Source: Eledone cirrhosa (lineage: Eukaryota). Taken from it: 64,000 bases of DNA. The stretch covers positions 22,444,001 to 22,508,000 of the forward strand of contig OZ024752.1 of the NCBI GenBank assembly GCA_964016885.1, in the 5' to 3' direction. The stretch's first letter is position 1, and the number at the start of each line of letters is the position of its first letter. Positions 9,199 through 53,621 of this stretch are shown piece by piece. A program made the translations under genes and the position numbers. The notes beneath the pieces are model-generated. The model searched no databases. It worked only from the letters and a program-made list of their open reading frames with translations, and was not told the origin of the DNA.

Positions 9199-9640
9199 GG
9201 TGTATTTTATCATGGCACCAGCACTACACTTTACAACATGGACTGGGTGTATTTTATCATGGCCCCAGCACTACACTTTACAACATGGACTGGGTGCATT
9301 TTATCATGGCCCCAGCACTACACTTTACAACATGGACTGGGTGCATTTTATCATGGCACCAGCACTACACTTTACAACATGGACTGGGTGCATTTTATCA
9401 TGGCACCAGCACTACACTTTACAACATGAACTGGGTGCATTTTATCATGGCACCAGCACTACACTTTACAACATGAACTGGGTGCATTTTATCATAGCAC
9501 CAACACTACACTTTACAACATGAACTGGGTGTATTTTATCATGGCACCAGCACTACACTTTACAACATGGACTGGGTGTATTTTATCATGGCCCCAGCAC
9601 TACACTTTACAATATGGACTGGGTGTATTTTATGACATAA
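9199..9640. repeat. 47-bp minisatellite, about 9-10 copies
   Basis: Unit GGTGYATTTTATCATGGCMCCAGCACTACACTTTACAACATGRACTG repeats with period 47. Confidence 0.95.
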
Positions 9641-10029
9641 GCACTACTGCTTTACTGAAAGTTGTGTGCATTTTATTGTGACACCAGCACTGGGGGGATT
9701 TTTGTATTTAGCAGGATAGAAACAGGCAGCGTGGGGGGGGGGGGGGGGGTGAGAGTATGGTGCAAGTAGCATTGTGGAATGGGTAGCAATGGCTTCTATA
9801 TGTTACTTGCTGAGAAAGAAGGAAAGAAAGTGGGAAGAGATGTTTGGATCATGAAGGTGTCCTTGAAGAGAAGGAAAGTGATGACTAACATCATCTCTTG
9901 AGGGGAGATGGGGTAAAGGTTGTAAAGTGATACACAGCATAGCATCTTAGGCAAGTGTCATTTACCATAAATTGAAAGAAATAATCCATTTTGTTTTGCT
10001 AACACTTCATCTGGGATGCCACATGTTGT

Positions 10030-10310
10030 GACACCTTCTCCACCTCAAACTTAGTCGATTCGGCCGCAAACCCCGGTACTGAGGCCAGCCTTGCAAAGAA
10101 AAGGAAGATAAACAAATACCAGGGATTGTCTGGCCGCTTCCTCTTTGCACCTGTTGCCGTCGAGACCTCATGCATACTTGGACCCCGTACAGTCGAGCTC
10201 CTCCGTAAGATCGGAACGTCAGCGGCCCGTCTGAGCCCTGTGAGGTGGAGTGGCTGTTGCTGATCATTGTCCGCAGGAATGCTTTTGCAGTCTTGTCCGC
10301 GAGGCGCAGC
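10030..10310 (+). mobile_element. CRE-like RLE 3' fragment
   Basis: LGPRTVELLRKIGTSAARL..EVEWLL...RRNAFAVLSA; homologous to 15520-15675 (-) and similar to 5833-6010. Confidence 0.6.
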
Positions 10311-10469
10311 CCTTTATCGCCGTGCCCTAGGCCCAGAGCCTAATCACCCTCGCCGTTCTTCTTTTCCGTTTTTTTCTTTTATATTTTCCTATTTTACATT
10401 CCATTCTTTCTTCTCCATCTAAATTTTCTTTTTTTTTTTCTTTTTCTATGGAAAAATTTATGCACAAAA

Positions 10470-13400
10470 TCATCATCATCATCATTTTACCTCCGCTTTT
10501 CCCTGTTTGCAAGGGTGGGACGGGTCTTATTCACCACAGCATCTCTCCACTCGTCACGGTCCCTCGTCATCTCCACCGTGAGCTTCAATGATCTGAGATC
10601 TGTTCTCACCACCTCCGCCCATGTTTTTCGTGGTCTACCTCTACCTCGTCTTCCTTCAACTGGCAATTCCTGGCACTTCTTCACCCATCGGTCATCCTCC
10701 ATGCGCATCACATGTCCATACCACCTCAGTCTCCTCTCCCGTACACTACATTCTATCCCTCTCAGACACAGTTTCTCTCTCAACACATTTATGCTGGGTC
10801 GTTCACGCACATTTACACTGCACATCCAACGGAGCATGCTTGCCTCATTTCTCTCCAGCCGTCGCATATCCTCTGCAGTTGCTGCCCATGTCTCACTACC
10901 ATGCAGCATCGCGCTCCTCACACGGGCATCATACAACCGGCCTTTCGTACGCAGGGAGAAACCCTTCTTCGTCAACAGAGGAAGCAGCTCCCTAAACTTC
11001 TTCCAACCCGTCCTTATTCTAGATACTATGGCCTCCGAACACCCTCCTCCCATGCTAATCTGATCTCCTAGGTACCGGAAGCTATCCACCACTTCTATAG
11101 CGCCCTCTTGCATTTGAAAAATGATGTGTCTATCAGTGCGACTTCTACTGTCTAATTTCCCTGTACATCTACTGCATACATATTTCTCCCTACCTGTTAG
11201 TTTGCCTGCTATCCCGCTACATCTCTTGTGTACCCAGGATCTGCATCGTGTGCATTTTATAGAATTTATGCCAGTTCCTTTTCTGCATATCGAACATGGC
11301 AATTTCCCTGATGGAATCAGAGTTTTGTCCTCTTTTCTACTCATCAACACTTTTGTCTTAGCTAGATAACACTCTCAGTCTTCTTGCTTCCAACTGCTGT
11401 TTCCATAGCCAGAATTTATTCTCTAGCTCCTCTACTGATTCTGCTATAAGAACCAGATCGTCAGCATAGAGAAGTTCCCATGGACAGCCAGTCTTAAACT
11501 CCTCTGTTATGGCTTGGAGGACTATAATGAACAAGAGCGGGCTGAGGACCGAACCCTGATGTACTCCTACTTGTATCTGGAATTCCTCACTAAACTCCAT
11601 TCCTACCCTGACTTTACTGAGAGTACCTCTGTACAAAGTTTGCACTGTCCTCACAAGCCATTCCTCAACACCTAGCTTCCTTAGGGACCACCAGATGACA
11701 GATCGGGGTACCCTATCAAAGGCCTTCTCTAGGTCAACAAAGGCTAAGTATAGTGGCTTATTCTTCTCTAAGAACCTCTCTTGCAATTGTCTCACCAAGA
11801 AAGGGGCATCTATTGTACTCTTCCCAGGCACAAAACCAAACTGCATCTCATCTAGTTTGACCCTTTCTCTAATTAGTTGTGCTAAAATCCTTTCTGCCAC
11901 TTTTATAACCTGATCTATCAGTTTTATACCCCTATAATTGCTCCTCTCCAAAGCATCTCCTTTACCTTTGTAGCAATTTATGAGAATACTGCTGCACCAG
12001 TCTTTGGGTATGACACCACCATATATAGCCTGATTGATGATGCGTGCAACCAGTTTAGTGCCTACGTCCCCTGATGCCTTCAGCATCTCAGCAACTATTC
12101 CCGATGGTCCGGCAGCCTTACCATTTTTCATTTCCCTAATCGCCTCTTGGACCCTATATTCGTCAATCTCAATAGCTGGTCCCTCTGTCGGATCTACCAA
12201 GGGTAATTTCTCTCTCTCCCATTCGTTCTCCACATTCATCAGTCTCTCATAATGACATTTCCAGGCCTCCTTTTTCTGATCATTCGTGACACTAAGTACA
12301 CCGGCATCATCCCGGACACATTTATCTCCAACAACATCCTGATTTGCATTGATACACTGCCTTGCAATGTGGAACACCGCACGCCTCTGATCTTCCCGTC
12401 GCAGAACATTGGCAAACCTCCTACTCTCTGCCTCCCTGCGTGCTAAGCACACCTAACGTCTAGCTTCTCTCTTAGTGGCTGTATATTCTTCCCTACTCCC
12501 ACCCTTTTTCCAAGCCTTCCATGCTAGTCTTTTGTCTCTAATAGCCTTATCTACTGTGCTGTTCCACCACCAGGTCACTTTCTGTCTGGTTGGAGCTCTG
12601 CTCCAGCCACAGGTTTCATCAGTAGCCTGCAGCAAGTTGTCACGTAAGAAATTCCAGTTATTATCTGTCATACGTCTCTAAATTGTCTTCTTTTTCGTCA
12701 TATACATCTTGAAGGGCTTTCCTAAATTTGTATTTTAGTGAAAGGTCTTTTAGCTTCCAGACCTTTCTTCTCCACACCTTCCTATATGTCTCATTCCATC
12801 TCTTGCTTACTGAGATATCACTAACAACTAACCTATGCTGTGGGGTACATTCTTCCCCAGGGTATGCCTTGGTATTAGACACTATCTTCCCGTTGCCTAA
12901 CTAGCAAGAAGTCAATCTGGCTTATGTGCTCACCAGATTTGTAGGTTATTAGGTGATTGGCAGGTTTCTGGAAGTTTGTGTTGCAAATAGTCAATGTACT
13001 CGCATCACAAAATTCAAGAAGTCTCACTCCTTCTTCATTTCTTGAACCGTAATCGAGCCCGCCATGTACCCCAGTGTAACCATCCTGGAGCTGTCCAACA
13101 TGACCATTGAAGTCTCCTGCTAGCATAACGATGTCTCCGTCCTCTGTCATTGCGGTTGTTTGCAAAAGTTGCTCATAAAAGCAGTCTTTCTCATCTTTGC
13201 CTAGGCCTGCTTGGGGAGCATAGACCGAGATGATTGTCAGTAGTCTCCTACCTACAACTAATCTAAGCTTAATTATTCGATTACTAACTCGAACTACCTC
13301 TATTGTCTTATTGATCCATTTCTCAGCCAGGAAAATGCCTACTCCTCCTAGCCCATCATCCTTACCTACCCAGAATAGCTTATAGCTAAGACGCTTGCCT

Positions 13401-13690
13401 ACGACTAGTCTCGCAGAGGCACCTCTCCATCTCACCTCTTGCACGCAGCACACATCCACCTGCCTTCTCTCCAGCATCTCCGCTATTTCAGCAGATCTAC
13501 CTCTGAGAGTGCCAACATTAAGTGTTGCAACTCTGAGATGCGACGTCTTCATATTTTGTTGTTCCTATTTGTTGCTGTGCTGATAAGCGTTTTGGCATTG
13601 ATATACTGGTTGGATGCCTTTCCTAACACCAGCGCCACTTTACAGCATGGACTGGGTGCTTTTATTTGTGCCACCAGCACTAGAGAGGAT
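10470..13690 (-). mobile_element. Near full-length RTE-clade LINE (APE + RT), with frameshifts
   Basis: APE motifs ATLNVGTL, CVQEVRW, GDFNGHVG, QIDF; RT motifs NYRGIKL, FVDLEKAFDRV, QGSVLSPLLF, LYADDL; PHD-like CSICRK...CRSWVHKRC insertion; (GAT)n tail at ~10470-10485. Confidence 0.92.
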
Positions 13691-16774: not shown

Positions 16775-17659
16775 ATTACAGAAACATTTGTTTAATATTC
16801 TGAATAATATGCACAAAACTGATGGAATTTTAGTACTCACATTGCAAGAGTATAACAGGAAAGTCACACTGCATGCTAGTGTCATGATCATTAACAATTC
16901 GAAAAACATTTCCGATATTTTCACTCTTCTTTATCTTGTATATATCAGTATCTCAGTAGATATGTATGAAATACATTGGTTTAGGTATACGTATGTATGT
17001 TACAGACAGACAATTTTAGGATACACTTAGAACATCCAGTAGAAAGGAAACTTAGATATTATCTATCTTTACAAATAGATTATCTTACAATACAATACAT
17101 AATTGTTTCTACTTTAGGCACAAGGCCAGCAAGGCAAAGTCAACAATACATAATGATGCGATTTAGGATTCTTTTTCTAGTATTTACATGTGATAAGATC
17201 AGGGCTATTTTCCGGAAAATGCAACTTTGGCATCAATTCTAAATACCGATGTTTATATCACAATCAGCTTGAAGTTGTATCAACTGAAGCCAATAATTAT
17301 ATTGTATCCTGTGCTGTTATATATATATATTTGCGTACATATGTAATATATATATATATATATATACGTCTCCGAGGGTTTCAGAACGAAGACTACACAA
17401 TGAAATTATTAACAAATCTAAACATTATGCTAGCTTTTGCGAAAATTCACCAAACTGTGTGACTTAGACAAGTTTTACTGAACGGGTGGAATTTCAAATG
17501 ATTTTGACGTTTGTTTGAGTTTTTGTTACGTTGGAAACACTACGTTGTTACCATGGTGACACAAGTTGTTCGGTAAAAACATAGATATGTCTATATATAA
17601 TACCAGATAGAAAAATGCGTACAGCAAAAAAGACACACAGTTTGGTGAATTTTCGCAGG

Positions 17660-18115
17660 GAGGTGAGCAAAGTGAGGGGGGGGGGGGAATGAGCCAAGTG
17701 AGAAAGGTGCACAAAGAGGGGGAGATGAGCCAAGTGAGGGAGGTGCACAAGGAGAGGAAGGTGAGCAAAGTGAGAAATGTGCACAAAGAGGGGGGGATGA
17801 GCCAAGTGAGAAAGGTGCACAAAGAGGGGGAGATGAGCCAAGTGAGAAAGGTGCACAAAGAGGGGGAGATGAGCCAAGTGAGGAAGGCAAGCAAAGAGGG
17901 GGAGATGAGCCAAGTGAGAAAGGTGCACAAAGAGGGGGAGATGAGCCAAGTGAGGAAGGCAAGCAAAGAGGGGGAGATGAGCCAAGTGAGGGAGGTGCAC
18001 AAAGAGGGGGGGGAGCCAAGTGAGAAATGTCCACAAAGAGGGGTAGATGAGCCAACTGATGGAGGTGAGCAAAGTGAGACAGGTGCACAAAAAGAGGGGG
18101 GTGAGCAAAGTGACC
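17660..18115 (+). repeat. 36-bp purine-rich coding tandem repeat, about 11-12 copies, at the N-terminus of the Rep ORF
   Basis: Unit ATGAGCCAAGTGAGAAAGGTGCACAAAGAGGGGGAG (MSQVRKVHKEGE, or DEPSEKGAQRGG in the alternative frame). Confidence 0.92.
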
Positions 18116-21100
18116 AGGAAGATTTTGATGGCAGAAAATGTACAGAACTTCTGACTTTGGCTAGATTGTGCAAATTTGGTCCCCCATCAAATTGCCCAGA
18201 TCCCACTGCACGTCTAAAGCTAGCTAAACGAATGCACAAGGCCATACATGAACTTTCACCTGATTTTACTGTGTCCCAAATTCGGAAAAAAATGGAAATC
18301 TTTGAGCAGTGTAAAGGATTCCATAGGGACAACATCTATTGCATAGGACAGTCTGACTGCACAAATGGACTTGAACTGATTCGAAGTATGGCTCCTCACT
18401 CTCCTCGCATCCGTACACTTCTGAGATGTGTGTACAAAGTGAGATCAGTCTGTGTCTGGCTAGACTCCTATGACATTTCAATCTTGGAAGGAAATTGGTC
18501 AATGTTTGATGATCTAGTAAATCCCCAAAACATGTCCAACAATCTGCTAAGCCGTTTGAATGAGATAGTGGAAAATGAAAATGAGAGCTTGCATTCAGAA
18601 TCCTCAATCATGGCCAATTTTGCATCCATTATCAAACATTTTAATAAAGAGATTCAAAAAATGAAAATCAACTCCTGTGACATTTGCAAACAACGAGAAT
18701 TAGATGCTAAACTCAAAGTCTGGGAGGATTGGAGCCCTTTGACAAATCCCTATCTCCTGGAAACCATTCAACAAAACTACTCTCTACCATGTACGATTTG
18801 CTCTACATGTAGAAATAGTCTTGTCAAAAAGTCGATACCATCATTGGCTTCAATCAATGGCCTAGAAGTGGTCAAAATTCCAAATGTGTTGTCAAAGTTG
18901 AACATGTATGAGCAGATTTTGATCCAAATGGCCAAATGCTTCTTCAATGTCATTAAATTGTCACCCTATCGTTTCAAAGGTGCACCATCAGATCTAGTAG
19001 CTGCTATTAAAGGAATAGCAACTCACATGCCACTACCAGTAGAAAAAACAATCAATCATGTAATGAAAAAACTTCCATCGAATCAAAATGAGGCATTTGA
19101 AATAATTGTTGATAGTCTTCCAACTAAAAAGGGCACAATTTGGCGATCGCTAGTGAATATGCAAAATTTCTTTGATGCCTTGGAGTGGCTGAAAAACAAC
19201 AATGACATTTTGATAGACAGAACCACAAATTTAGAGGACATTGTTACATGCACTGGTGAAAATGTTTCCATCAATTTTCCACACATTCTCACACAAACTG
19301 GTGCTGAAACAGTCTATGAACACCATACTGTACAGCAAATCAAGCCTGCACTCCCAAATCAAAAGGACCTTGAACTGTTTCGCATGAAACGAGTTGAAGG
19401 TACTCTTCTTCCGGACAATGATCCAAACCTGGATCTGATGTGCTTCCCCCACTTATTCCCTAAAGGAAAATTTGGAATGATGCACATGAACAGACCCCAT
19501 GGTAGAGTAAAGCCATACATGTTCATCAGAAACAGACTCAGACATGAGGACCCCCGGTTTCGTAGAGACATTCAGTACATTCTCTACAATTTGGACAAGG
19601 CTGACAAAAGAGCACTAGATTCTGGCATTTATGCCGTAATGAAATCACTCAAAAGTCCAAAATTGACACTTGCTCAATTTTATAAAAGATTGGAAGCCAA
19701 TGATGAACAATTGGAAAGTGGTTTGTCAATGATGATGGCGAATGTTCGTGGAACAAAGCCATTTTGGGAACGCAAGTGCTCCGACTTGAATACCATAGAT
19801 GAGAAATTCGGTCCTGCCCATTTTTTTATCATTCTTTCATGTGCTGAATACTTTTGGCCAGGCTTGAGGGAATTTTTGGAAAAACTCAAAGACATTGCAA
19901 ATGTTGAAACAAGGCCGATAAGGAATCTCTGTGCAAATGATGTTGTGGCTGTCAGTGAGTACTTTCACCATCGTTTTAGTGCTGTTTTTCATGATGTAAT
20001 TTTAAATATAAAAGGCCCATTTGGGGAAATTATTCATTACTTTTGGCGACTCGAGTATCAACAACGTGGTGCCCCTCACATTCACCTTAAAGCCTGGGTT
20101 CGGGACAGTGTAATTTTTGACAAAGATCCTAAAGAAAAAATCAAGCAATTTATTGAACGCTGCATTACTTGCCGGCTACCATCCCCTGTGGCCAGCACAA
20201 ACTTGGCAAATCTCGTTAGACGGTTCCTAGTCCATACTTGTGGCAAAGCATGCTGGAGAATAGTGGGGAGAGGGAAAAATTTGCGTAAAAAATGTCGTTT
20301 TGGTTTTGCACGTGCAGTGGGGCCATTTCGATTTTTCTCAGTTTCTGAAAGTATCAAATCACGAAAAAATGGTAATGGGACAAACAAAACTACCAATTGG
20401 AAAGAAAAGAATCAGAAAAGTACATAAATGACTACAATCCATGTTTACTTCTAGCCTGGCAAGCAAATATAGATGTGCAATACATTGGTGAGAATAGTAT
20501 GATTTTGAATAGATATGTCAGCTGCTATCAGACTAAGGCCAAAAAAAATGAGGCTGAGGGAGTGTGGGCGAATCTGGATCATTCCAAAACAAAATATGGG
20601 AAATACAAAAGTGCTGGACTGCAATTGCTTGGGAAAAGGGATACAGGAGGGTATGAAGCTGCTGACAAACTTTTGGGGCATCATTTTTACGGGTCATCAG
20701 ATCATGTTATTTGGGTAGGTGCAGATATTCCCAGTAGGCGCGGCCGCAGATTGAAATCTCAAAATGATCTCGATGAACTGAGTGAAGACTCAATGGACTT
20801 GTTCTACGAGAACATGGTGGAAACTTTTTACAAAAAACCGGCCAAAATTCCTGGAAGATTCCTCCTTATATGAAGTTGCCAGCAAATATGAGAGGACACA
20901 AAAAAAAACCTGTTCACAAAGATGTGGCTACAAAAATGAAATTGCTCAATGACAAGGGGTATTTTCATAGTGTAAAAGAGCGGGTAGTTAAAGCACCAAA
21001 TATACAGCTCAAAGATGACACAAAAGAACGTTATTACCACAATCTTCTAATGCTGTTCAAACCCTGGCGCGATGAGGACAAAGATTTGTTGGGGGGCTGC

Positions 21101-23594
21101 AAAACATTTGAAGAGTCCTTTCATCTGTGTGCAAACAATTTGCCAGATATGGTGAATTTTCAAAATGTGAGGAAAAAAATCACTGATGCAGTTGAGATGG
21201 GGAAGAGGTTGGAGAAGGAGGGTGAAAAGGAGGGAGAGCTCGGAGAAGGACGGAGAGAAGGGGGGGAGAAGGAGGCAAGAGATAAGGCTGGTATTGATGT
21301 TCCCCAAATTCGAGATGTAGATGAAACTGCTCTACAGACAAAAGAAACACAGCTTAATACAGATCAAAGATCCATATACAATCTAATTGTATCAGCAATT
21401 GAAAAACAGGAATTGCATTGGAATTCGGAAAAACCACTACCAAGGTGCAGATGTGATGATTGCCCACAATTTCTCAAATTTGTCTCTGGCGTAGGAGGTA
21501 CAGGAAAAAGTTTTCTCATTGATATAATTTCTGACAAAGTTACTCAAATTTGTTGCAAGAGAAATGGGGCCCCAGTAGTCATTTGTGCACCAACTGGTAT
21601 GGCTGCTTTCCAAATCAAGGGGACCACTTTGCACAGGCTCTTGAAACTCCCAGTCCAACATGGAAAGTCACCATCATATAGGGAATTAGAAAGTGATGAA
21701 CTCAAAATTTTGCGATCCACTCTAGAGGGTGTCCGTCTGATAATTATCGATGAAATAAGTATGGTCAGTCATCTGATGTTGGCATTTATCCATAGGCGTC
21801 TAGATGAGATTTTTGGGGACCAGAGTCACATGACCAGCCCTTTTGGAAAAATAAATATTCTGGTTTTTGGCGATCTACTTCAACTTCCACCAGTAAATGA
21901 AAAAACAGTCTTTTCCAGTATTTCTGCATATGATGCTAAAAGGACTGGTCTGGGAATAAGTGGGCAGTCACTGTGGACATTTTTCGACTATGATGAGCTC
22001 ACTATAAACATGCGGCAAAAAAATGACAGTGAAAACTATTCTGAAATGTTGGGTCGAATAAGAATAGGATCACCTACAGACATGGACATCAAGACTAATG
22101 CTGAGACGAAACATTAATTTGGTGAAGGGGCTATGTAATGGTGTCATGGGAACAGTGCAAAGCATGGTCAATGGAAAAGATGGGAAAATGGGACAAATCA
22201 TTGTGGAATTTGATCACATGATAGGCAATGACATTTCAATAGAAAAGGTGACTGCAGACTATGAAATCTCTCCTGGTGTGTATGTGACACGAAAACAGTT
22301 CCCCCTATGCCTTGCCTATGCCATCACCATCCATAAATCACAGGGAATAAGTGTTGATGGGGTCATTGCCGATCTTGGTCCTCTGGTGTTCGCAGATGGA
22401 ATGGCCTATGTTGCACTTTCACGAGCTAGGAAACTCTGCAATGTCTATTTGATAGATTTTGACCCACGAACCCTGATCATGTGTGACAAATCTGCTTGGG
22501 AAGAGTACAACAAATTGCGTTCTACAACAAAATTGCCTCCACTTGGGCCATGTAGAAATAAACCACCATGCATGGCTTCTGAATCTTGCATGCCAAAAAA
22601 ACGATCAAGGCGAATGTTGAATGTGGACAACCCTTCTGAATATGCTGCTCCTACCAAAAAACCTAAATTAGCTACAATTTCCATGCTCACTCCCATGATT
22701 AGACTACAAAATAAGGAAAATGCCTGTTTTGCCAATTCCACACTTCAAGCTATTGCCCAATTGCCCAAACTTTGGGAAACTTTGTTGTCTACCCAATTAC
22801 TCAGTCCAGTTGTTCAGGAAATAGCAAATATTGTCACACCAGGGGATCGGGATGTTTCAATTCTGCGAAGATTAATTGGGGGGAGATTTAATGATGGTGC
22901 TCAGCAATGTGCCCATGATTTTTGGAAAAATATCTACCCACATTTTCCACCAAATGCACAGCAAATATTCCAATTTCAAGTGAATGAAACACTAAGATGC
23001 ACTAAAAGTCATGAAAAGGAATGCCCACGTTTGAATGATCAAATTTGTACTTGCACACATAGACCTGGATGTGGACTCGAAACTCACAAAACACCAGAAA
23101 TTCAAACAGACTTGACATTGCATCCTATTCAAGGCCCTCAACAGTTTCGTACTTTACTTGTATCAAATGACACCATAATAAAACAATGTGACACCTGCAC
23201 CACCAATACAGAGCACAAAACAACCATCAGGAGAGATTTCCCACCCACAATGCACTACCTTGTAGTATCAATCAACCGATTCCTCATAACCAGTGGTCAA
23301 GAAACTCAAATACATTGTGATTTATTGAATTTCAGTTCAAAACGCCAGCAGTTTTTTGGTACCAATTTCCAACTTCAATCAGCAATTGTTCACACATTAG
23401 GTTCCACATCAGGAGGTCATTACACTTGTTTAATTCACAAAGATGGTGACAAATGGGATGAAATTAGTGACACGTGCATAACCAAAAGGCACCCAAAATT
23501 TCCACCTAAATTGCCAAATATTGTTTTACTTTTTAAAAAAAAAACTATAGGTCCAATATCACTCCAGAATGCTCTGTCCTACACATCCATGTGA
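17689..23594 (+). pseudogene. Helitron-like HUH Rep + PIF1 helicase + USP (peptidase C19) polyprotein, split by frameshifts (~20400, ~20850) and a deletion/frameshift (~22095)
   Basis: Rep: GPAHFFIILSCAE, RLEYQQRGAPHIHLKAW (HUH), YVSCYQTK. PIF1: GVGGTGKS, IIDEISMV, GDLLQLPPV, MRQ, QFPLCLAYAITIHKSQG, YVALSR. USP: LQNKENACFANSTLQ, QQCAHDF, SAIVH..STSGGHY, WDEISD. Confidence 0.92.
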
Positions 23595-24354
23595 ACTCTA
23601 TTAGACATTAAAATAATATAGAGTATAAAAATCTGTACTACTATATGAAAAATTTGTTTCATTTGTCAAGCAACTGTGTCAGAGGACAGTGCCGAAGTAT
23701 GCAGTAGGTCTGTCCAATGTAACTGTTGTCTGCCAAAATGTAACATTTTATATTATAAACATTTATATGTATGTCTAATGGAGTTACACATCTTTACTGG
23801 CAATTCTTCACTATTAAATTTCTTGGTCACAACTTGGACTTGGTGGGTGGATTTTTAAAATAAATATGAACAGTCAAATCAGGTGAAACAAAACAAGCAA
23901 CAAGCAAGCCACATCATAAGCAAACAAATAATATACATGCGAAAAATTGTAAAAAATGCACACAAAATTTGTAATTAATCCCCCGAAAAAATTCATGTGA
24001 AAAAAATCCCCCAAAAAGTTTGCATGTGAAAATTGACAAAAATGCTGTGTGTGAAAAAATCAAAAAAACCTCAAAAAAACTTGCATGTGAAAATTGACAT
24101 TTGCTTTGTATTGTGTAAAATTTGTCATTTATTTTATTGTCATGTCTAATTAAAATGTAATTTTCAACTAAATGCAAATGGTGTAATTGCACCATTTAGA
24201 TTCAGTTGTTAATGCTCACCTACTAAATATTATCTAATATATTTCAAATTGTATTTTTAACTAAATTCATTTATCATAGTCTAATATTTTAAAAATAGGT
24301 GAGTGCTCCACGATGATGACCCATGTCCCCGCCATGTGGAGTGGATACTTAGGA

Positions 24355-24414
24355 GCCATCCAGATATCATGTGACCATTTTTGGTTCGCGGTGTCCACAT
24401 GATATCTGGATGGC
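24355..24414. repeat. Perfect 19-bp inverted repeat (hairpin) with a 22-nt loop
   Basis: GCCATCCAGATATCATGTG (24355-24373) and CACATGATATCTGGATGGC (24396-24414). Confidence 0.9.
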
Positions 24415-24635
24415 CCTTTATACTAATTAGTCATTTATCTGCATAAAAATTATACCAGATCATTCTGATTATTGGCTTGAAATCTTTTACAAAATTAGTA
24501 TGAGCAACTAAGAGGTCATCAATAGAAATAGAATTACTTTTTGAAGTTTTCATGCACAGCATTTTTGGGGATTTTAAATAAAAGTTAATATCATAATTCT
24601 TATTTTGTATACCCACATTGCAGATACAGAGAAAC

Positions 24636-26023
24636 ATGACAATCCTATATAAAGGTCGTAGACAACAGTATCAGTTTTTATCCAATATGAGCAAATTAAA
24701 CAGTCCACTGAATTTATTGGAATGTTCATTCATCACAGTTGAACATGCTTATAAGTACATCAAGACCCTATTTTATGGGAGAAATGACCAACTCTGCCAC
24801 ATTTTGGCAGAAAAAGACCCATTTAAGTAAACATATCCCATACATATTTGATTAAAGTTTACAATGCTATTTTTTGATAGATTGTCAACTTTCTGCAAAG
24901 AGAGAGATTTCAAATGGGAATCAATCCAGTTTGATCTCATGGTGGTACTGTTGTCAATGAAATTCGAAAATGATCCTCTACTAGCATCAAAACTTTGTGA
25001 CACGGGGACTGTATGTAGATGTGACTAGGGTTGCAAACGGTTTTTTTACCATTAAAAAACCAGTAAAAAACGGTTAAAAAACCGTTTTTTACCAGACTCG
25101 AAAAGTTTCCAAAAAAAGTTACAAACGGTTTTTTTACCATTAAAAACCAGTAAAAAACGGTAAAAAAAAACGTTTTTTGAGGGAAAAAACCATTTGAATC
25201 TAGCTCATTTCTTGAATATTTGTAGCAACAATTGGTCGAGGACACCCCTAATCCAATTTGGCGGCGAGGATTTAATGGGAATGGTACAAATCTCCATGGC
25301 CGTTGTTTAATGGTCGTCCGTGCACTTTTGAATAAAAATCACCCACAATTCAAGTATATTGTGGGTGATTCAATAATTAGAAATGTGGCGAAATCGAATG
25401 ACCAGAAAGTATAAAAATATTAATTCAAATGTATTTACTTATCATACCAACAAAAATACTTAGATATTTTGTATAAGGGGGCCCGTCAGGGCCAGGTAAT
25501 GTTAATCGCCAACATTGTTATCTGTTGTCCTTTTGTGAAAGTATTGGTGGTTCATGTCGGCTCTAATGATCTGAATCCTCGTCGCACCGTTGGCACTACA
25601 AAGCTGTGCAAAGTAATACAATAATTTTTGCCCAAGTATTTTTTATTAATCATTTATTTGTAAATTAAGGACAAAGTGCCCATTCGAGGCACAAAACCGG
25701 GAAAACAGGGGAAGAGTCTCTTTGCAAGGCTACAGAAAATAGCGGAAAAGCACCACTGTACACCCATTTTCTACAGTGGTGTCATTCCACGTCCACAAAG
25801 TGTAATTGAAAATAGAAATGACTTGGGCAAGAGAAATTCTCGTTTGGAAAAGTTTAATTACTGCATGAAAGAAATGATTCAAAAATTGAACTTGCCCAAT
25901 CTTCACAACATTGAAAATTGGTCAAAATTTGACAAATCTGACTTCAAACCAGATATGAATCATTTGAACAATGTTGGAAATCTTAAATTGACAGAAATTT
26001 TTGCCAATGTTTTTGCCACCTGA
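24636..26023 (+). CDS. Spliced NADAR (YbiA-like) + SGNH/GDSL hydrolase fusion, ~335 aa, one -1 frameshift in a G run
   Basis: Exons 24636-24826, 24881-25010, 25226-25408, 25464-25612 and 25670-26023, all GT-AG and phase-consistent. NADAR: FLSN..TVEHAY..K..W....M..KF..DP.L...L.DTG..LVE....W..G...G.N.HG..LM.VR. SGNH: IVGDSIIR, RGA, VHVGSND, DMNHLN. AATAAA at 26061. Confidence 0.85.
25026..25192. mobile_element. Probable MITE/TIR-end fragment inserted in intron 2 of the NADAR-SGNH gene
   Basis: Starts TAGGGTTGCAAAC; duplicated CAAACGGTTTTTTTACCATTAAAAACCAGTAAAAAACGGT; this intron is 215 bp while the other three are 54-57 bp. Confidence 0.45.
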
Positions 26024-26203
26024 TCCTTGTTCTATGGCTGACTGACTAATTTTGTGACTTAATAAAATGTCATCATACTAGTAATGCACAATTGTCATTT
26101 TAAAATTTAAATTTTATTAAATAGTTGTTGCTTGCATTGCCTTAAAATAGTAACAAGAATGTACACATACTTTTTAAAAATACATCATTATCAGTCAAAT
26201 CAG

Positions 26204-26563
26204 TCAAATGTCACTAAAAGCCAGGTGGTCGATAACAACTTCTATAAGATTAGTTACATGCTCACACATTGGATCACCTCTCATCAATGGCATTGGGTGT
26301 CTGAGATAATCGTGGATATAACTGATGAAGTCACAAATGAAGTGATGGTCTTCCAGTGTGAACAACTCCCTATATCCATTGATATATGTGATGGCTTCCG
26401 ATTCATAGGTGCATTTTATGAGGAATTCCATGCATCCGATTTTCAGTGATTCAATGGGCATTTTATCAGAGATGATAAGGTATTTGACCACGTTTTGCTT
26501 TGTAAGTAAATTGGAGAGAATCACTGCAGTCAAAGTCATTTCTTTGCATGGGATTTTGTCCAT
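26204..26563 (-). CDS. 119-aa ORF resembling a BACK/SPOP C-terminal helical domain
   Basis: L..NLLTKQNVVKYLIISDK..IESLKIGCMEFL....EAI...NGYRELF fits the L-T-x-E-N-V..L.LAD....LK..C..FI pattern; preceded by a TTTTTAG acceptor-like site. Confidence 0.45.
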   Translation of the reverse strand: MDKIPCKEMTLTAVILSNLLTKQNVVKYLIISDKMPIESLKIGCMEFLIKCTYESEAITYINGYRELFTLEDHHFICDFISYIHDYLRHPMPLMRGDPMCEHVTNLIEVVIDHLAFSDI

Positions 26564-26833
26564 TCTAAAAAGTTAAAATGATAAAGTATTACTACTATAT
26601 AACTTACATCTATTGTAACACCGTTGAAATGCACAAGTTTCACCAATTCACTATTATGCACTAATCATCTCAAATGCATTCATGATTTACTAGCTTTGTC
26701 ATTAAGCCAGTTGCCTCAACTAGATTGCAATTATACTCAAAAGAACTTTAAAATGTCAATCACTTGTCAGTAATTCACTATGATCATTTAATTATTAGAT
26801 AGTTGTTGCTTGCATTGCCTTAAAAAATAGTAG

Positions 26834-27928
26834 ACCAGATAGAAAAATGCGTACAACAAAAAAAAGTAATATTGTTGGAATATAAACCTTTAAAAATACA
26901 GGACAAGAAACTAAGATAAAACTTTAGAAGAATAGGACAAGAAACAAAGATAAAACTTTAAAAGAATAGGACAAGAAACTAAGATAAAACTTTAAAGAAT
27001 TGGACAAGAAATAAAAAAATTTACAATAATATTAGTGGCAAAATTTTTTTATTCGTTTCCTGTGCTATGCCCCAGAATCTTCTTGATTAGTGCATACTAA
27101 TTGTCATGCTCTCATTGTGCGTTGCCCCTGAGCGGTTGGTTCTGGTTGGGGTTGGTTGGCTGATCAGTTCTGCTCCGGCAGAATTACCATTGCAAGAAGA
27201 ATTGGCCGATGCAGCTGCAGGTCTCCTCCAAGAATGCACTTCTGGTCCCGCAAGACTAGACGAAGATGGAGAAGACGACCGGGACAAGATGTCGACTCTG
27301 ACCACCGACTACGGCACCTCCCTCAACCACCGGTCCTCCCTCCCTCTGTCCCGTCATCCCTCCAGTCCTCCTGCTCCCCCTTCCTGTACCAGAAAGCTGT
27401 GGCACGCATTCATCTGGACTGTCGGACTTGAACTTAAGGACAAGATGCAAGGAGAAGATGGGCGGGTTGGTCAAGATCAAGGATGAGCGGGACGACAAGA
27501 CCGTCCGCTGCTGCTCAAGATCTGTGCTCATGGGCCCATGGGTCCATTCACATTATGCATGACACATGAGGCGTGTCGCCGAATGATGAAATAGGGGTAT
27601 GGTTATGGCCCAATTGGTGTTCAAACCAGGATCAAATGATCCCCCCGGTCTGACGACGACCTCTGAATGTGGAACCCAGAGCCAATGAATGTTGAACTCG
27701 ATTTTTTACCAATAAAAATTTTGCCACTAATATTATTGTAACATTTTTTATTTCTTGTCCAATTCTTTAAAGTTTTATCTTAGTTTCTTGTCCTATTCTT
27801 TTAAAGTTTTATCTTAGTTTCTTGTCCTATTCTTTTAAAGTTTTATTTTAGTTTCTTGTCCTGTATTTTTAAAGGTTTATATTCCAACAATATTACTTTT
27901 TTTTGCTGTACGCATTTTTCTATCTGGT
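26834..27928. mobile_element. Foldback-like unit with ~215-bp inverted arms containing ~34-bp subterminal tandem repeats
   Basis: Arms ~26834-27051 and ~27711-27928 are near-perfect reverse complements; unit GGACAAGAAACTAAGATAAAACTTTAAAAGAATA. Confidence 0.85.
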
Positions 27929-28249
27929 ATATATATATATATATATAATTATATATTCGTGTACAGATACTTTTGCATGCACAAAATATAAACAAACGTA
28001 TTTATTTCACGCAGCTCGATAAGGATAAATATATATCAAATATATAAATATATAAATATATATCAAATATATACGAACCCTAGTGCGGACTCTTGTGTCA
28101 TCGACACAGTAGGCGGAATGGGAAAGTGAGGATAACGTAGGGTGTACATTGGGTTTAGAGGTGCTTACTGGCTGTAGGTTTGTATGCAAGGGAAGGCGGG
28201 TCTTCTGTACAATTGCATAATTGCTGGGTAAAAAAGTGAGCAAGGTCAG

Positions 28250-33000: not shown

Positions 33001-33378
33001 AAAATATATATCCTAAACGGACGGTAGTCCATTTAGTAATATTGTTGTGGTCGTGTTTTCGTTGGCAATCGTCTGTTTACGACAGTACAGCGCGGCTCTA
33101 CTTTATTTAACTGAGATAAAACTTATATGAGCATGAACAGTAGATCATTACACATCTTTTGGCTTAAAAATCTAGAAATTTGGTCCAGCGGGAAAAAGTT
33201 TATAATCAAAGTTTGTTGATAAATCTTGTGTTCAAGTGAGAGAGTAGTAAGCGTGACGCTAGGGGAGGTAATTACGAGGTAATTACAAGGGGAGGTAATC
33301 TAATATATTTCAAATTGTATTTTTAACTAAATTCATTTATCGTAGTCTAATATTTTTAAAATAGGTGAGTGCTCAATA

Positions 33379-36790: not shown

Positions 36791-37299
36791 ACCACTCTCA
36801 AGCGTGAACCTAATACTAACACTTTGTACTGCACACTTTGTTATTGTCTTTGCTTTTTGTTTTAACTTATAAATATCATCATCATCATCGTTTAACGTCC
36901 ATCTTCCACGCTTGCATGGGTTTAGACGGGAATTGTCCCACTTGAGGCAAGATTGATTGTCTCGCTCGAATAGGACTGTCTGGCAGGTTTTCTATGGCTG
37001 GATGCCCTTCCTAACACCAACCACGTTTACAGTGTGGACTGGGAGGTTTTTACCGTGTTACCTACACGGCTACATTACAGCGTGGACTGTGTGTTTTTCT
37101 GTCGTGACACCTACACAACCTCATTTATTTAGGACTGGATGTTGTGGTACCAACATAACTTTACAGAGAAAGGGGTGGTGTTGATGAGGGTGGGGGAGTT
37201 GGGGTAGTGGGACGGGGGTGCATATTTGATTAAGAGATGCCTACTGACTATAGGTTTCGCTTTGTACTTAGGCAAGGCAGGTTTTCTGTATTATATATA

Positions 37300-37950
37300 C
37301 CAGATAGAAAAATGCGTACAGCAAAAAAAAGTAATATTGTTGGAATATAAACCTTTAAAAATACAGGACAAGAAACTAAAATAAAACTTTAAAAGAATAG
37401 GACAAGAAACTAAGATAAAACTTTAAAGAATTGGACAAGAAATAAAAAATGTTACAATAATATTAGTGGCAAAATTTTTATTGGTAAAAAATCGAGTTCC
37501 ACATTCATAGGCTCTGGGTTCCACATTCAGAGGTCGTCGTCAGACCGGGGGGATCATTTGATCCTGGTTTGAACACCAATTGGGCCATAACCATACCCCT
37601 ATTTCATCATTCGGTGACACGCCTCATGTGTCATGCATAATGTGAATGGACCCATGGGCCCATGAGCACAGATCTTGAGCAGCAGCGGACGGTCTTGTCG
37701 TCCCGCTCATCCTTGATCTTGACCAACCCGTCCATCTTCTCCTTGCATCTTGTCCTTGAGTTCAAGACCGGCAGTCCAGATGAATGCGTGCCACAGCTTT
37801 CTGGTACAGGAAGGGGGAGCAGGAGGACTGGAGGGATGACGGGACAGAGGGAGGGAGGACCGGTGGTTGAGGGAGGTGCCGTAGTCGATGGTCAGAGTCG
37901 ACATCTTGTCCCGGTCGTCTTCTCCATCTTCGTCAGGTGTTGCGGGACCA
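37300..37950 (-). mobile_element. Second, partial copy of the right end of the 17603-27927 element
   Basis: Reverse complement of ~27245-27927 with one fewer 34-bp unit; terminus TA|CCAGATAG; diverges after GCGGGACCA. Confidence 0.9.
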
Positions 37951-49193: not shown

Positions 49194-49723
49194 TTGGCGA
49201 CCCTGACGATAAAGAATGAAAACGCAGCCTATTGGAGTCCGAAATTCTTTTTAACGGCAATGTGGAATGGCTTAACATTTGGAATGTCCGAATCACTTAG
49301 CGTAAGTCCATAAAATTCATTATATTCCATTTGTTATAGCACGCATACAGACAAACACAAAAAATACAACACACAACAAAAAAAAAAAAAAAAAAAGGAT
49401 TTCTCTGGAAATAGAATTTTGCTTCCAACATTCTGTGGAAATTACAAATGGAGATATTTCGTTTTCCCGCGTTCAGCCTGTCTTCTCCAATCCCAGCCAT
49501 CTGATTGGCTGCATCGTGCCTCATGACGGCTTCATCACGGACACATTTTTAAATCAGCCATCTTGGATTTTCTTACCATTAATTTTCATAGAAAATGATT
49601 TTTTTTTATTATTAAAATTTTCTTTGGAATATTTTTTTTTAAAGAAAAAAATTACCAGCAATCAGCAGCAACACATGGCTAACTATTGACCAACACCAAA
49701 AAAATCATCAAATACGTGGCACC

Positions 49724-50509
49724 ATGAGTCAACATCAATTACCGTCCTTCGCAGGCGACATCAAGTTGTGGTTTGCGCAGCTGGAATGTTTCTTCGAATT
49801 GACGAAGACAAAGGAACAGCATAAGCTGAAGGTCCTGATCAATAGCCTACCTGTTTCCTTGGCATTCTCGGCGAGGGACGTTGTGACGGATTTAGACGCC
49901 GACGTTACCTACGGCTCATTAAAAAAAGAAATCCTTCGCCGAAATACCAAGTCGGTAGAGAGCCGTTTTCGGGAGTTGTTGGACGATGCTCAAATGGGTG
50001 ACAGGAAGCCGAGCTCCTATTTGCGACATTTGCGGGAGTTGAGCGACTCTCAGGGGATTGACACCCCCTTCATAAAACAACTTTTTTTCTCACGCCTACC
50101 ACCAAGTGCGCAAAGAATATTGGTCAATAGTTTAAAGAAGGATTCAATAGAGCAACTTGCCGCGTCCGCGGATAGGATACTTGAGGTGGACTCGAACAGC
50201 AATCAGCATAATGCTTATGTGGCTTCAGCTTGCGTCCCTCCACGCAGTTCTTCTATGGCCGACGGCAAACTGTTGGAGTTGATTGAAGCTCTCACCAAAA
50301 AGGTAGAGGATTTGACGGTACATCACAGAGAGCCTTCTCAACGTTTGAGGTATCGTTCGCCGCCGTCCTCTATTCATCGCCAGCACTACAACGCAGGCAA
50401 CAATAATTCTTCGTTGTGTTGGTACCATGCTAACTTCGGCAGTAGGGCGCAACGTTGTCGCACGCCCTGTGATTATAAGAGATCGGGAAACGCAAAGCAG
50501 AGCCACTAG
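49724..50509 (+). CDS. gag: Gypsy gag
   Basis: LWFAQLECFF, MGDRKPS..LR.LR, CWYHANFG..AQRCRTPC (CHCC knuckle); G GGA AAC slippery site at 50485-50491. Confidence 0.9.
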   Translation: MSQHQLPSFAGDIKLWFAQLECFFELTKTKEQHKLKVLINSLPVSLAFSARDVVTDLDADVTYGSLKKEILRRNTKSVESRFRELLDDAQMGDRKPSSYLRHLRELSDSQGIDTPFIKQLFFSRLPPSAQRILVNSLKKDSIEQLAASADRILEVDSNSNQHNAYVASACVPPRSSSMADGKLLELIEALTKKVEDLTVHHREPSQRLRYRSPPSSIHRQHYNAGNNNSSLCWYHANFGSRAQRCRTPCDYKRSGNAKQSH

Positions 50510-53500
50510 GAGCGGCTAGTGAACTCTGGGAAAACCGACCGAACCGCCATCTTTTCGTATACGACCTGCGGTCAAAAAAATTTTTCCTTGTCGATACTGG
50601 CCAGTCAGTTATCTCAAAAAAAGCCCAGCCGAAGCAGATATAAATCTACGAGCAGTCAACCACACGGCCATTCGAACGTATGGGCAAATTTCGCTTCCTC
50701 TTCGGTTAAAAAATTTGCGGCGTGATTTGAGGTGGAAGTTTACTGTCGCCGACTTGCCATACGCCATTTTGGGAGCGGATTTTCTCCACCATTTTTCCTT
50801 GTTGGTGGACATTCGCAGACAACGCCTTGTTGATACTGAAACAGGCCTTTCTTTCGAGGGTTCAGAGCCGGACGTCGCCACCGTCAGCCCTTCCTTTTTC
50901 TTGGCTGAAGTGGGCAACCAGTATCAAAGCCTGCTACATTCATTCCCTCAGTTGACGCAGGGAAAGTTAAGAATAACTAGCCCGGATCATGCGATTGAAC
51001 ACTTCATATCCACTACAGGTCCACCTGTTTTCTCACGTCCTCGAAGATTGTCTACAGAGAAGATGAAAGCTGCACGTCTTGAATTCGACCACATGCTGGA
51101 ATTGGGAATAATTCGGCGCTCCACAAGTCCTTGGGCATCGCCTCTGCATATGGTACCTAGATCTTCTGGGGATTGGAGACCGACGGGTGACTACCGACGC
51201 TTAAACGCGATTACTGTGCCTGACCGTTATCCAATCCCGCATTTGCAGGATTTTGCGTCGTCATTGCAGGGTTGCAGAATCTTTTCTAAGCTTGATTTGA
51301 TCCGCGCTTATAACCAAATTCCGGTTAACGAGGAGGATATCCCAAAGACTGCTATTGCCACTCCTTTCGGATCGTTCGAGTTCCTCACTATGCCTTTCGG
51401 CCTTAGAAACGCTGCAAGTACCTTCCAACGATTTATGGATGATATTACTCGGGGCCTGGATTTTGTGTACACTTATATCGACGACGTGTTGATTGCTAGT
51501 TCTTCCCCTCAGCAGCATTCAAAGCATCTGGATCTCGTGTTTCGTCGTTCACAGAGATATAATGTTCGAATTAATGCTTCCAAGTGTGTTTTCGGCTCGA
51601 CTTCACTAACATTTTTAGGCCATCTGATTGACGCCGATGGTATTCGACCTCTTCCTGAGAAGGTTAAGGCAGTATCGGATTTGCCTCCGCCAAGTTCACT
51701 GCGTCAATTGCGTCAATTCCTGGGCCTTGTAAATTTTTATAGGCGATTCGTACCTGGTTGTTCCAAATTGCTGTTCTCGTTGACAGAGATTTTTAAGGGT
51801 TGCCGGCGTAAGAATATGGACATTTCCTTAAATGAAACGCAGCTTGATGATTTTAAAAAAGTGAAAAAGGCGTTAGCGAACGCGTCTTTGCTCGCCCACC
51901 CAGTACCCAACGCCGAGCTATCGCTCTGTGTTGATGCTTCGGATAGCGCCGTGGGCGCAGTCTTACAGCAGAAGGGTGATGGGGTACAGCAACCACTCGA
52001 GTTCTTTTCGAGGAAGTTAAAGCCTTCAGAAACTCGCTATAGCACCTTTGGAATGGAGCTATTAGCAATTTATTTATCAGTGAAACATTTTGCTCATGTA
52101 CTTGAAGGTAGAACATTCACCATTTTCACTGATCATAAACCCTTGACGTTTGCTCTTCGAACTAAGGCAGACAAATACTCGCCCAGAGAAACGAGACATC
52201 TGGACTTCATCTCACAGTTCACGAACGACATTCAAAATATTCCGGGTTCTTTGAATACAGCGGCCGATGCGCTGTCTCGCCTGCCGATCGCATCGATTTC
52301 GTCTTCCGAGGAGATAGATTTACATCGAATGGCAGCTGCCCAACCCACTCTCGAATCGTTGGATGTTACATCGCCAGAGTTTGTACATTGCAAACTGAAA
52401 TACATTCCGATCTCAACTGCTGACGGACAGATACTGTGTGATGTTTCGTTGGACTCACCACGACCTCTAGTCCCAGTGGAACATCGACGAACTGCGTTTC
52501 TCGCTTTACATGGCATTTCTCACCCAGGAGTATCAGCCTCAGTAAAACTCATAACAGCCAGATTTTTCTGGCCTGGTATGAGACGTGACATTGCTGCTTG
52601 GTGTCGTTCCTGTGTCGCTTGCCAACAAGCGAAAGTTCATAGACATGTTAAGGCTCCTCTCGGAACCTTCACCTGCCCCGATGCAAGATTTCGTCACATT
52701 CATGTGGACATCGTCGGCCCGTGGCCGGTTAGTCGTGGTTTTTCGTATCTTTTGACGATTGTTGACCGTTTTTCGCGTTGGCCTGAAGCCGTCCCTATAA
52801 CAGATATCACCGCCGAAACCACAGCCCGTACCCTCGTATCTTCGTGGATCGCTCGTTTCGGTGTACCAACCACCATAACAACGGATCGTGGTCGTCAATT
52901 CGAGTCTAACCTCTTCCGAGAGCTAACTCAAATCCTGGGGGCTACTCGAATAAGAACCACGGCTTACCACCCAGCCTCAAACGGAATGGTGGAAAGATTC
53001 CACAGGCAGCTCAAAGCCTCCTTAAGGGCTTCCATGGACTCTTCACGTTGGAGCGAGTACCTACCCATTGTATTGTTGGGTATTCGGTCGACGGTAAAGG
53101 TGGACCTTGGGTTCTCCTCTGCCGAATTAGTTTATGGTACGCCTCTGGCGTTACCGGGGAAAATGCTGGCCCCTTTTGACCTGACTTCGCAGGACCCCGC
53201 TTCCTACGTGTCCCGGCTTCACTCTTATTTCAAGGATCTACCACCGATGGGCACTAGGAAGCAGACTGTAAAAAATGCCGTCCCAAGGGATATTGCCTTG
53301 TGGACCCATGTGTTCGTTAGAGACGACGCCGTGAAACCCCCTCTTCAACGGCCGTACTCTGGACCCTATCGTGTGCTTGCTCGCACAGACAAACATTTCA
53401 CACTGGACATTCAGGGTTCCAGGGAAACGGTTTCCGTTGATCGTCTCAAACGAGCAAACCTGGACAATGACACAATGACACTTGAAACTCAAATGCCCCC

Positions 53501-53621
53501 CTCTTTTTCTTTGCCACACAGGCCTATTTCTTCCCCTCCCCCACCATCAACACACAGAACTACGACCCGTTCTGGGCGAAGGGTGCATTGGCCCCGTAAG
53601 CTATGCAGTAATATAAACTGA
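50486..53621 (+). CDS. pol: Gypsy pol (damaged protease; intact RT-RNaseH-integrase ORF 50715-53621)
   Basis: FLVDTG in the -1 frame followed by a deletion and stop; [51 protein letters not shown]. Confidence 0.92.

Follow-up and report, generated by a model that had tools for sequence, protein, structure and literature searches.

SGNH genes on fish Helitrons (PMC4021074) and NADAR domains on retrotransposons (PMC12477816) are already known. The fish texim genes, like the gene described here, contain introns, are linked to Helitrons, occur patchily and are related to the esterases of LINE ORF1 proteins; they have 15 exons and are placed upstream of the Helitron coding sequence or surrounding it, and the available text of PMC4021074 names no NADAR. 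An Ectocarpus Gypsy Pol and an oyster Tx1 LINE ORF1 possess NADARs of the YbiA family as domains inside the larger protein (available text of PMC12477816). ZfL2-1 ORF1p (4C1B) is a transposon-borne SGNH esterase with GDS, PGA, GxND and DxxH blocks like those found here, and belongs to a LINE ORF1 that also has a coiled coil but no NADAR (available text of PMC3905857). HLE2 Helitrons of subgroups c/d combine DUF6570 and UCH with RepHel, as does the present element, and NADAR and SGNH are absent from the 20 captured domains listed in the accessible parts of this HELIANO survey and its supplement (PMC11417382). In the literature outside Repbase and subscription journals we found no paper describing a Helitron-borne NADAR or the fusion of NADAR to SGNH.

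The window analyzed here is a stretch of 64,000 nucleotides from Eledone cirrhosa (assembly GCA_964016885.1, contig OZ024752.1, positions 22,444,001 to 22,508,000 of the forward strand). It contains a copy of an HLE2-type Helitron with a predicted spliced gene for a NADAR domain fused to a C-terminal SGNH esterase (Table 1). Unlike texim, this gene is situated 3′ of RepHel and inside defined termini, a distinction which is drawn from the published description and not from sequence; unlike the Ectocarpus and oyster NADARs, it is a separate spliced gene with the SGNH partner. The predicted fold and the Glu, Lys and last-strand Glu are those of YbiA (2B3W) and the Phytophthora NADAR (8BAU) as described in the available texts of PMC11543638 and PMC11125620; the Helitron NADAR differs from both in having Asn in place of the pyrophosphate-binding Asp130, Gln where they have Arg93, one residue fewer before the Trp, the added SGNH domain and no toxin partner. 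Antitoxin NADARs linked to DarT1 (BC4488 type) have a last-strand Asp and lie next to DarT1, whereas the Helitron protein has Glu112; a transferase domain was absent among the element frames scanned, and the marks of the DarT1 type were not found.

Table 1. Features of the Helitron copy and its NADAR-SGNH gene (positions in the window; a slash marks a splice or element boundary)
Feature	Position	Strand	Remarks
Inverted copy of element 3′ end	17603..17630	-	Left break of window copy
RepHel transposase, HLE2 type	17611..23594	+	Four overlapping frames, broken in three places
Probable 5′-untranslated intron	24299..24623	+	AG/GTGAGT donor, TTGCAG acceptor; putative
Exon 1, from ATG	24636..24826	+	NADAR N-part, catalytic E36 and K43
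Exon 2	24881..25010	+	NADAR middle: W76, M..KF
Exon 3	25226..25408	+	NADAR C-part (catalytic E112, N..W) and SGNH block I (GDS156); fusion point
Exon 4	25464..25612	+	SGNH blocks II (G174) and III (GSN203D); frame broken in window copy at 25475-25477
Exon 5	25670..26023	+	SGNH block V (D313..H316), then stop
119-aa open frame	26204..26563	-	Convergent with gene; no Pfam family
Element 3′ end	26831..27931	+	218-bp inverted repeat 26831-27048 / 27714-27931; terminus CTGG/T at 27931
Right short repeat arm	27885-27897	+	Within element 3′ end

An earlier note, made by a model from the letters of the window, had described five exons and four GT-AG introns hidden among short open reading frames, and we found them where it had placed them. 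The introns are 54, 215, 55 and 57 bp long, with GT-AG in all four, and their GC content is 18-24% (introns 1, 3 and 4) or 30% (intron 2), that of the exons being 34-45%. When scored with a profile of foreign proteins (see below), the splice sites of introns 1-3 were the best of 30, 61 and 22 alternatives, respectively; those of intron 4, where the site falls in a variable loop, ranked 12th in a list of 96, most of the alternatives above them having GC donors or purine-rich acceptors. An intron is needed at this position because the frame would otherwise end at 221 aa, and its exact ends are placed provisionally by the look of the splice sites and the AT content. An alternative acceptor at 25477, which would skip the lesion in exon 4 to give 331 aa, was rejected, since it needs that private lesion and deletes SGNH block II. 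The AG/GTGAGT donor of the putative 5′-untranslated intron is also present in a sister family of Helitrons (85%). Splice joints were absent from the reads, which were DNA or of unstated kind and have no bearing on expression. The five-exon model holds by homology, and the gene is presumably transcribed and spliced accordingly. Intron 2 contains a tandemly doubled A/T-rich unit starting TAGGG (25028-25200), perhaps an old small transposon that lengthened an intron of ~55 bp.

Exons 1, 2 and 3 tile positions 4-67, 82-115 and 118-162 of the Pfam NADAR family in order. Single exons score below the PF08719 cut-off of 35.1 bits; the read-through of exons 1-3 in sister copy L003 reaches 42.8 bits. 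The foreign profile was made from eight intron-less NADAR-SGNH proteins, namely seven HMMER fusion proteins and cluster member P0021. It matches the spliced frame of sister copy L002 over residues 2-329 with 214.9 bits (200 shuffles, 4.6 or less), and the two halves separately with 152 and 54 bits; in the window, cut into 4790 stop-to-stop pieces, it ranks the five from the exons above all others, with E values of 2e-20 to 0.0024 against 2.6 for the best unrelated piece. Among solved structures, the profile of the Helitron family matches YbiA 2B3W (E 5e-30) and Phytophthora 8BAU (5e-20) and, on the SGNH side, 2HSJ (1e-9) and the LINE ORF1 esterase 4C1B (4e-9). Evidence for the fold comes from a relative, P0014, and not from the window protein: its predicted structure (pLDDT 84.6) ranks 8BAU and 2B3W first and SGNH esterases next. 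Exon 1 alone gave only chance matches to solved structures, and exon 5 alone reached 18.1 bits against the Lipase_GDSL_3 cut-off of 27 (E 0.0035), the relatives likewise falling under it, and a weak profile-profile match (probability 2%). Since the end of the NADAR and the GDS motif share exon 3, the fusion is independent of the splice model. Both domains named in the earlier note are thus borne out, NADAR by the Pfam score of the sister copy, the profile matches and the fold of P0014, and SGNH by the profile matches, the same fold and the presence of all motif residues in the family; the profile search that it had proposed for the spliced product found a match from end to end in L002.

By alignment, E36, K43 and E112 correspond to E43, K50 and E125 of 8BAU (the chain numbering of which is two higher), residues whose catalytic role in the Phytophthora NADAR is known from its structure and from mutating their E. 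coli counterparts (PMC11543638). The same source, in the part available, describes D130 as only helping to hold the pyrophosphate, through water. At this position the window gene has N116, as do two of eight relatives. The concern had been raised that the usual D..WG of NADARs reads N..WR here, leaving activity uncertain. This concern was not supported: the catalytic residue of the subfamily is the Glu of 'VE', which is kept; the Asn falls on a binding residue and is common to relatives; and the Arg is a change at the level of single copies, seen, of the six copies that cover the site, in the window and L002 only, with the G at 25262 that gives WG in four of the five others. In the relatives, which share pairwise identities of only 25-41%, E36 and K43 are kept in all seven that cover them, E112 in 8/8, the SGNH residues S, G and N in 7/8, and D..H in all five of full length. 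The corresponding residues of the Helitron family are S156, G174, N203, D313 and H316, block II being broken in the window copy. The NADAR is probably active as a glycohydrolase on base-linked ADP-ribose.

As it stands, the frame of the window copy breaks in exon 4. All 29 other copies in the alignment (30 fetched copies, window included) read ATA CCT GGG at the site, giving the I-P-G of SGNH block II, and the window copy reads ATA AG GGG, a private net loss of one base. The proposal that one extra G in the adjoining G run restores the frame was therefore right as to the single missing base but not as to its identity. Raw DNA reads, suggested earlier as a check on this run, show the extra base in 11/13 and 4/5 reads; they are pooled over copies, so that they fit a true mutation and an assembly error alike. 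A DNA search of the 3.0-Gb genome returned 369 candidates; of the 40 that were scored, 4 span the whole gene, 2 begin within the NADAR half and the other 34 begin near 25370, inside exon 3. The frame is open in only one of the four copies spanning the entire gene, L002, where it encodes 335 aa once spliced, and L003 and L004 are broken at other sites. L002 is itself changed at W-G and at the Asp of block V, and L003 has Gly at position 112. In its majority reading the family has an intact frame from start to stop, including the four splice pairs and every catalytic residue.

The transposase carries DUF6570, Helitron_like_N (Rep), a PIF1 helicase and a C-terminal USP/UCH protease. Rep lies upstream of the helicase, and DUF6570 and UCH are HLE2 class markers, UCH that of subgroups c/d (PMC11417382). 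The ends follow the 'HLE2-reverse' layout of the same survey, with a 5′ stem-loop, then a 13-nt repeat and its complement near the 3′ end, both arms of which were found. By these domain markers and end layout the element is an HLE2 Helitron, without target duplication, and it differs from those described in the available text of PMC11417382 in that its TC...CTGG ends lie in A/T (A/TC ... CTGG/T) and not in the usual T/T target, and in its extra 218-bp 3′ inverted repeat. The window copy lacks the first ~2.1 kb of the family, comprising the 5′ stem-loop, the left short repeat and the start of RepHel. A 12.6-kb copy at C28:42.94M extends from A/TC and the stem-loop to CTGG/T, includes RepHel, and holds the gene at element positions 9407-10788. 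The 34-base 5′ terminus has 297 exact occurrences in the genome (control, 0), and the copies are 97-98% alike, from which it follows that the family is young. All seven NADAR-bearing loci in the genome are copies of the element, in agreement with the suggestion that a rolling-circle transposon carries the gene, and the linkage to further Helitron copies, which was also to be checked, was seen in the sister copies. The convergent 119-aa frame is open in 24 of 28 other covering copies and is possibly a second cargo gene.

Other repeats were observed in the window: a separate non-autonomous copy start at 33004-33374, in which the 5′ terminus is joined to 24232; an inverted 3′ fragment of the same Helitron family at 37292-37950; a LINE encoding an endonuclease, an RT and, at the C-terminus, a PHD-like finger (10487-13564, minus strand); and a gag-pol of Gypsy type whose pol frame is open over 1032 aa (49643-53621, plus strand). 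The family itself, the 85% sister family and two HLE2-USP families at 45-49% have an inverted repeat of ~140-220 bp around 0.7-1 kb at the 3′ end, which is an inner mirror of the 3′ terminus (L103, L105, L108, L110-L112).

The NADAR half is kept at only seven loci, against at least 297 termini of the family. Six of ten longer, USP-bearing family copies are without it, and four of these six share one junction, so the NADAR-less form has been copied repeatedly. In the 85% sister family the similarity ends at 24585 and begins again at 26786, so that 24586-26785 is lacking; this arrangement would fit a gain in one lineage as well as a loss in the other, although the sister family keeps the probable upstream donor. 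No such gene is present in 16 stretches downstream of the USP domains of other families, among them a family with intact 2230-aa RepHel-USP frames. The case against the gene being necessary to the element is solid. Among copies, 3 of 17 changes in the NADAR half are synonymous (4.6 expected), as are 28 of 87 in the SGNH half (21.2 expected, p 0.06). In this comparison, which answers to the dN/dS check proposed in the earlier note, change in neither half was distinguishable from neutral. For the SGNH half the raw pN/pS had been 0.48, which was rejected as a sign of selection, p being 0.06 once changes were counted singly and the mutation spectrum was matched. As neutral change is expected after insertion, selection has its only support in active sites that are conserved over long evolutionary distances. 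Pfam, exon and foreign-protein searches of the genome, a first look in which counts of loci are lower bounds, found no copy of the gene outside the element, and no host donor for the decaying captured host gene that the earlier note had named as the contrary case. Three weak matches to exon 1 within the genome, considered as new families, are deletion copies, and a word-index search with exon 3 gave 14 candidates, none of which scored. A second, younger HLE2 family was observed at C2:253.90M, C3:72.99M, C5:5.37M and C14:27.66M (L088-L094, L106-L111); its 2230-aa RepHel-USP frames are intact, its copies are ~99% alike, and it may be active at present.

Of 19 proteins from a full HMMER search, eight (P0002, P0003, P0004, P0005, P0008, P0013, P0014 and P0019) have an SGNH-type region directly after the NADAR and no introns. 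The same two-domain shape is found in an Atlas cluster (361 aa; TM 0.76 over 330 residues to P0021) of 51 proteins from eukaryotes, each with its phylum on record and most of them from nematodes; annelids are commonest in a second cluster of 88. The fusion is wide across organisms but thinly sampled. Three metagenome contigs (L124-L126) carry an intron-less fusion inside a repeat with a shared sharp end; RepHel was not seen in these short contigs, and the 837-aa and 316-aa frames of the repeat had no Pfam or PDB match. On L124 (2565-5078 and 1-948, both minus strand) the 837-aa frame, which is transposase-like, runs into a truncated NADAR-SGNH gene, and a frame upstream, which has no database match, bears some resemblance to the start of a RAG1/Transib core. 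In a tree of 21 rows, biased because these were found with the window gene as query, the Helitron NADAR joins six of seven fusion rows with moderate support (84/82), and proteins of the reverse order, SGNH-NADAR, form a separate branch (100/99). Four proteins of reverse order (P0006, P0023, P0025 and P0026) have the arrangement PHD-SGNH-NADAR-zinc-knuckle and look like LINE ORF1 proteins. On viral contigs, one of 20 candidates is a giant-virus helicase with a NADAR and without SGNH. P0030 and P0031 were rejected as Helitron proteins, being phage-like products of 1500-1670 aa that combine a RecD-type helicase with a NADAR at the C-terminus, encoded on contigs of 30-100 kb.

We read the window gene as a broken copy of one that a young HLE2 family carries, the intact protein of which is likely an optional helper that takes ADP-ribose off bases while its esterase de-acylates or holds it on membranes; to this reading we give a probability of about 0.5. 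The NADAR half would cut ADP-ribose off guanine or cytosine in exposed single strands, the substrate probably being the exposed single-stranded DNA of the element or its RNA. The SGNH half would remove an acyl group, or else bind lipid or hold the protein on membranes. One intact copy might serve the deleted copies in trans, and the fusion may be an old module passed among selfish elements and not a fresh piece of a host gene. All NADARs assayed, one from a sponge included, removed guanine ADP-ribose from ssDNA according to the available text of PMC12945103, and viruses use NADAR as counter-defence (PMC9503650; likewise PMC11257639, in the part available). Guanine transferases of animals are on record as CARP-1 homologues in bivalves and other animals, so that counter-defence is possible for the Helitron as well. 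A search of the genome for a Scabin-like guanine ADP-ribosyltransferase gave no match, which is uninformative as the controls were silent too. Such a role for the predicted NADAR is weakened by the transposase-bearing copies and whole sister families without this half and by the neutral-looking change. A bolder version, which we consider improbable, would make NADAR plus SGNH a recurrent anti-host module of animal selfish elements, fused on two or more occasions with the domains in opposite orders and handed on between Helitrons, other DNA transposons and LINEs, that erases an undescribed, perhaps O-acylated, ADP-ribose mark placed by invertebrate hosts on transposon DNA or RNA.

It is possible, if somewhat unlikely, that the gene is a passenger, picked up once by the master copy of the family from a host gene or another element and now decaying without benefit. 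Helitrons do capture genes (PMC11417382, available text), four spliceosomal introns suit a gene of host type, and the sister families without the gene, its ready deletion and the neutral-looking change all agree with this; however, our first-look searches, with counts that are lower bounds, found no donor in the genome, the majority frame is whole with its splice pairs and catalytic residues, neutrality after insertion is expected of any transposon gene, and the relatives on L124-L126 also sit in a repeat. The protein might instead be a housekeeping accessory, its NADAR processing RNA or nucleotide by-products and its esterase binding lipids and placing the nucleoprotein in germ cells. RNA processing has been suggested for retrotransposon NADARs (PMC12477816), and the ZfL2-1 esterase, among the closest solved SGNH structures, binds phospholipids (PMC3905857), as far as the available texts go. 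It would also suit this reading that no host guanine transferase was seen, in a search with silent controls. Transposase-intact families in the genome manage without the gene, however, and to our knowledge Helitrons have no RNA intermediate, and we judge a housekeeping role to be rather improbable. Finally, a Helitron may have spread a gene that serves the host, in the germline as texim might or in immunity against bacterial DNA-modifying toxins. The SGNH genes of fish Helitrons are expressed in testis, and a host role is left open for them in the available text of PMC4021074; horizontally gained NADARs aid beetle immunity (cited in the available part of PMC12945103), and the 51 nematode-rich Atlas proteins of the same two-domain shape may be host genes; yet only one of four whole-gene copies is open, and that with active-site changes, and no copy was found outside the element, which leaves this explanation very improbable.

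The role of animal NADARs, and the ADP-ribosylation of bases in an animal's own or its parasites' nucleic acids, are stated to be open (available texts of PMC11125620 and PMC12945103). An element that exposes ssDNA and carries a NADAR whose catalytic residues are intact offers a direct way into that question. The locus also indicates that accessory genes split by introns can escape surveys of Helitron cargo that rely on open reading frames, and it points to an apparently undescribed family of NADAR-SGNH proteins across invertebrates.
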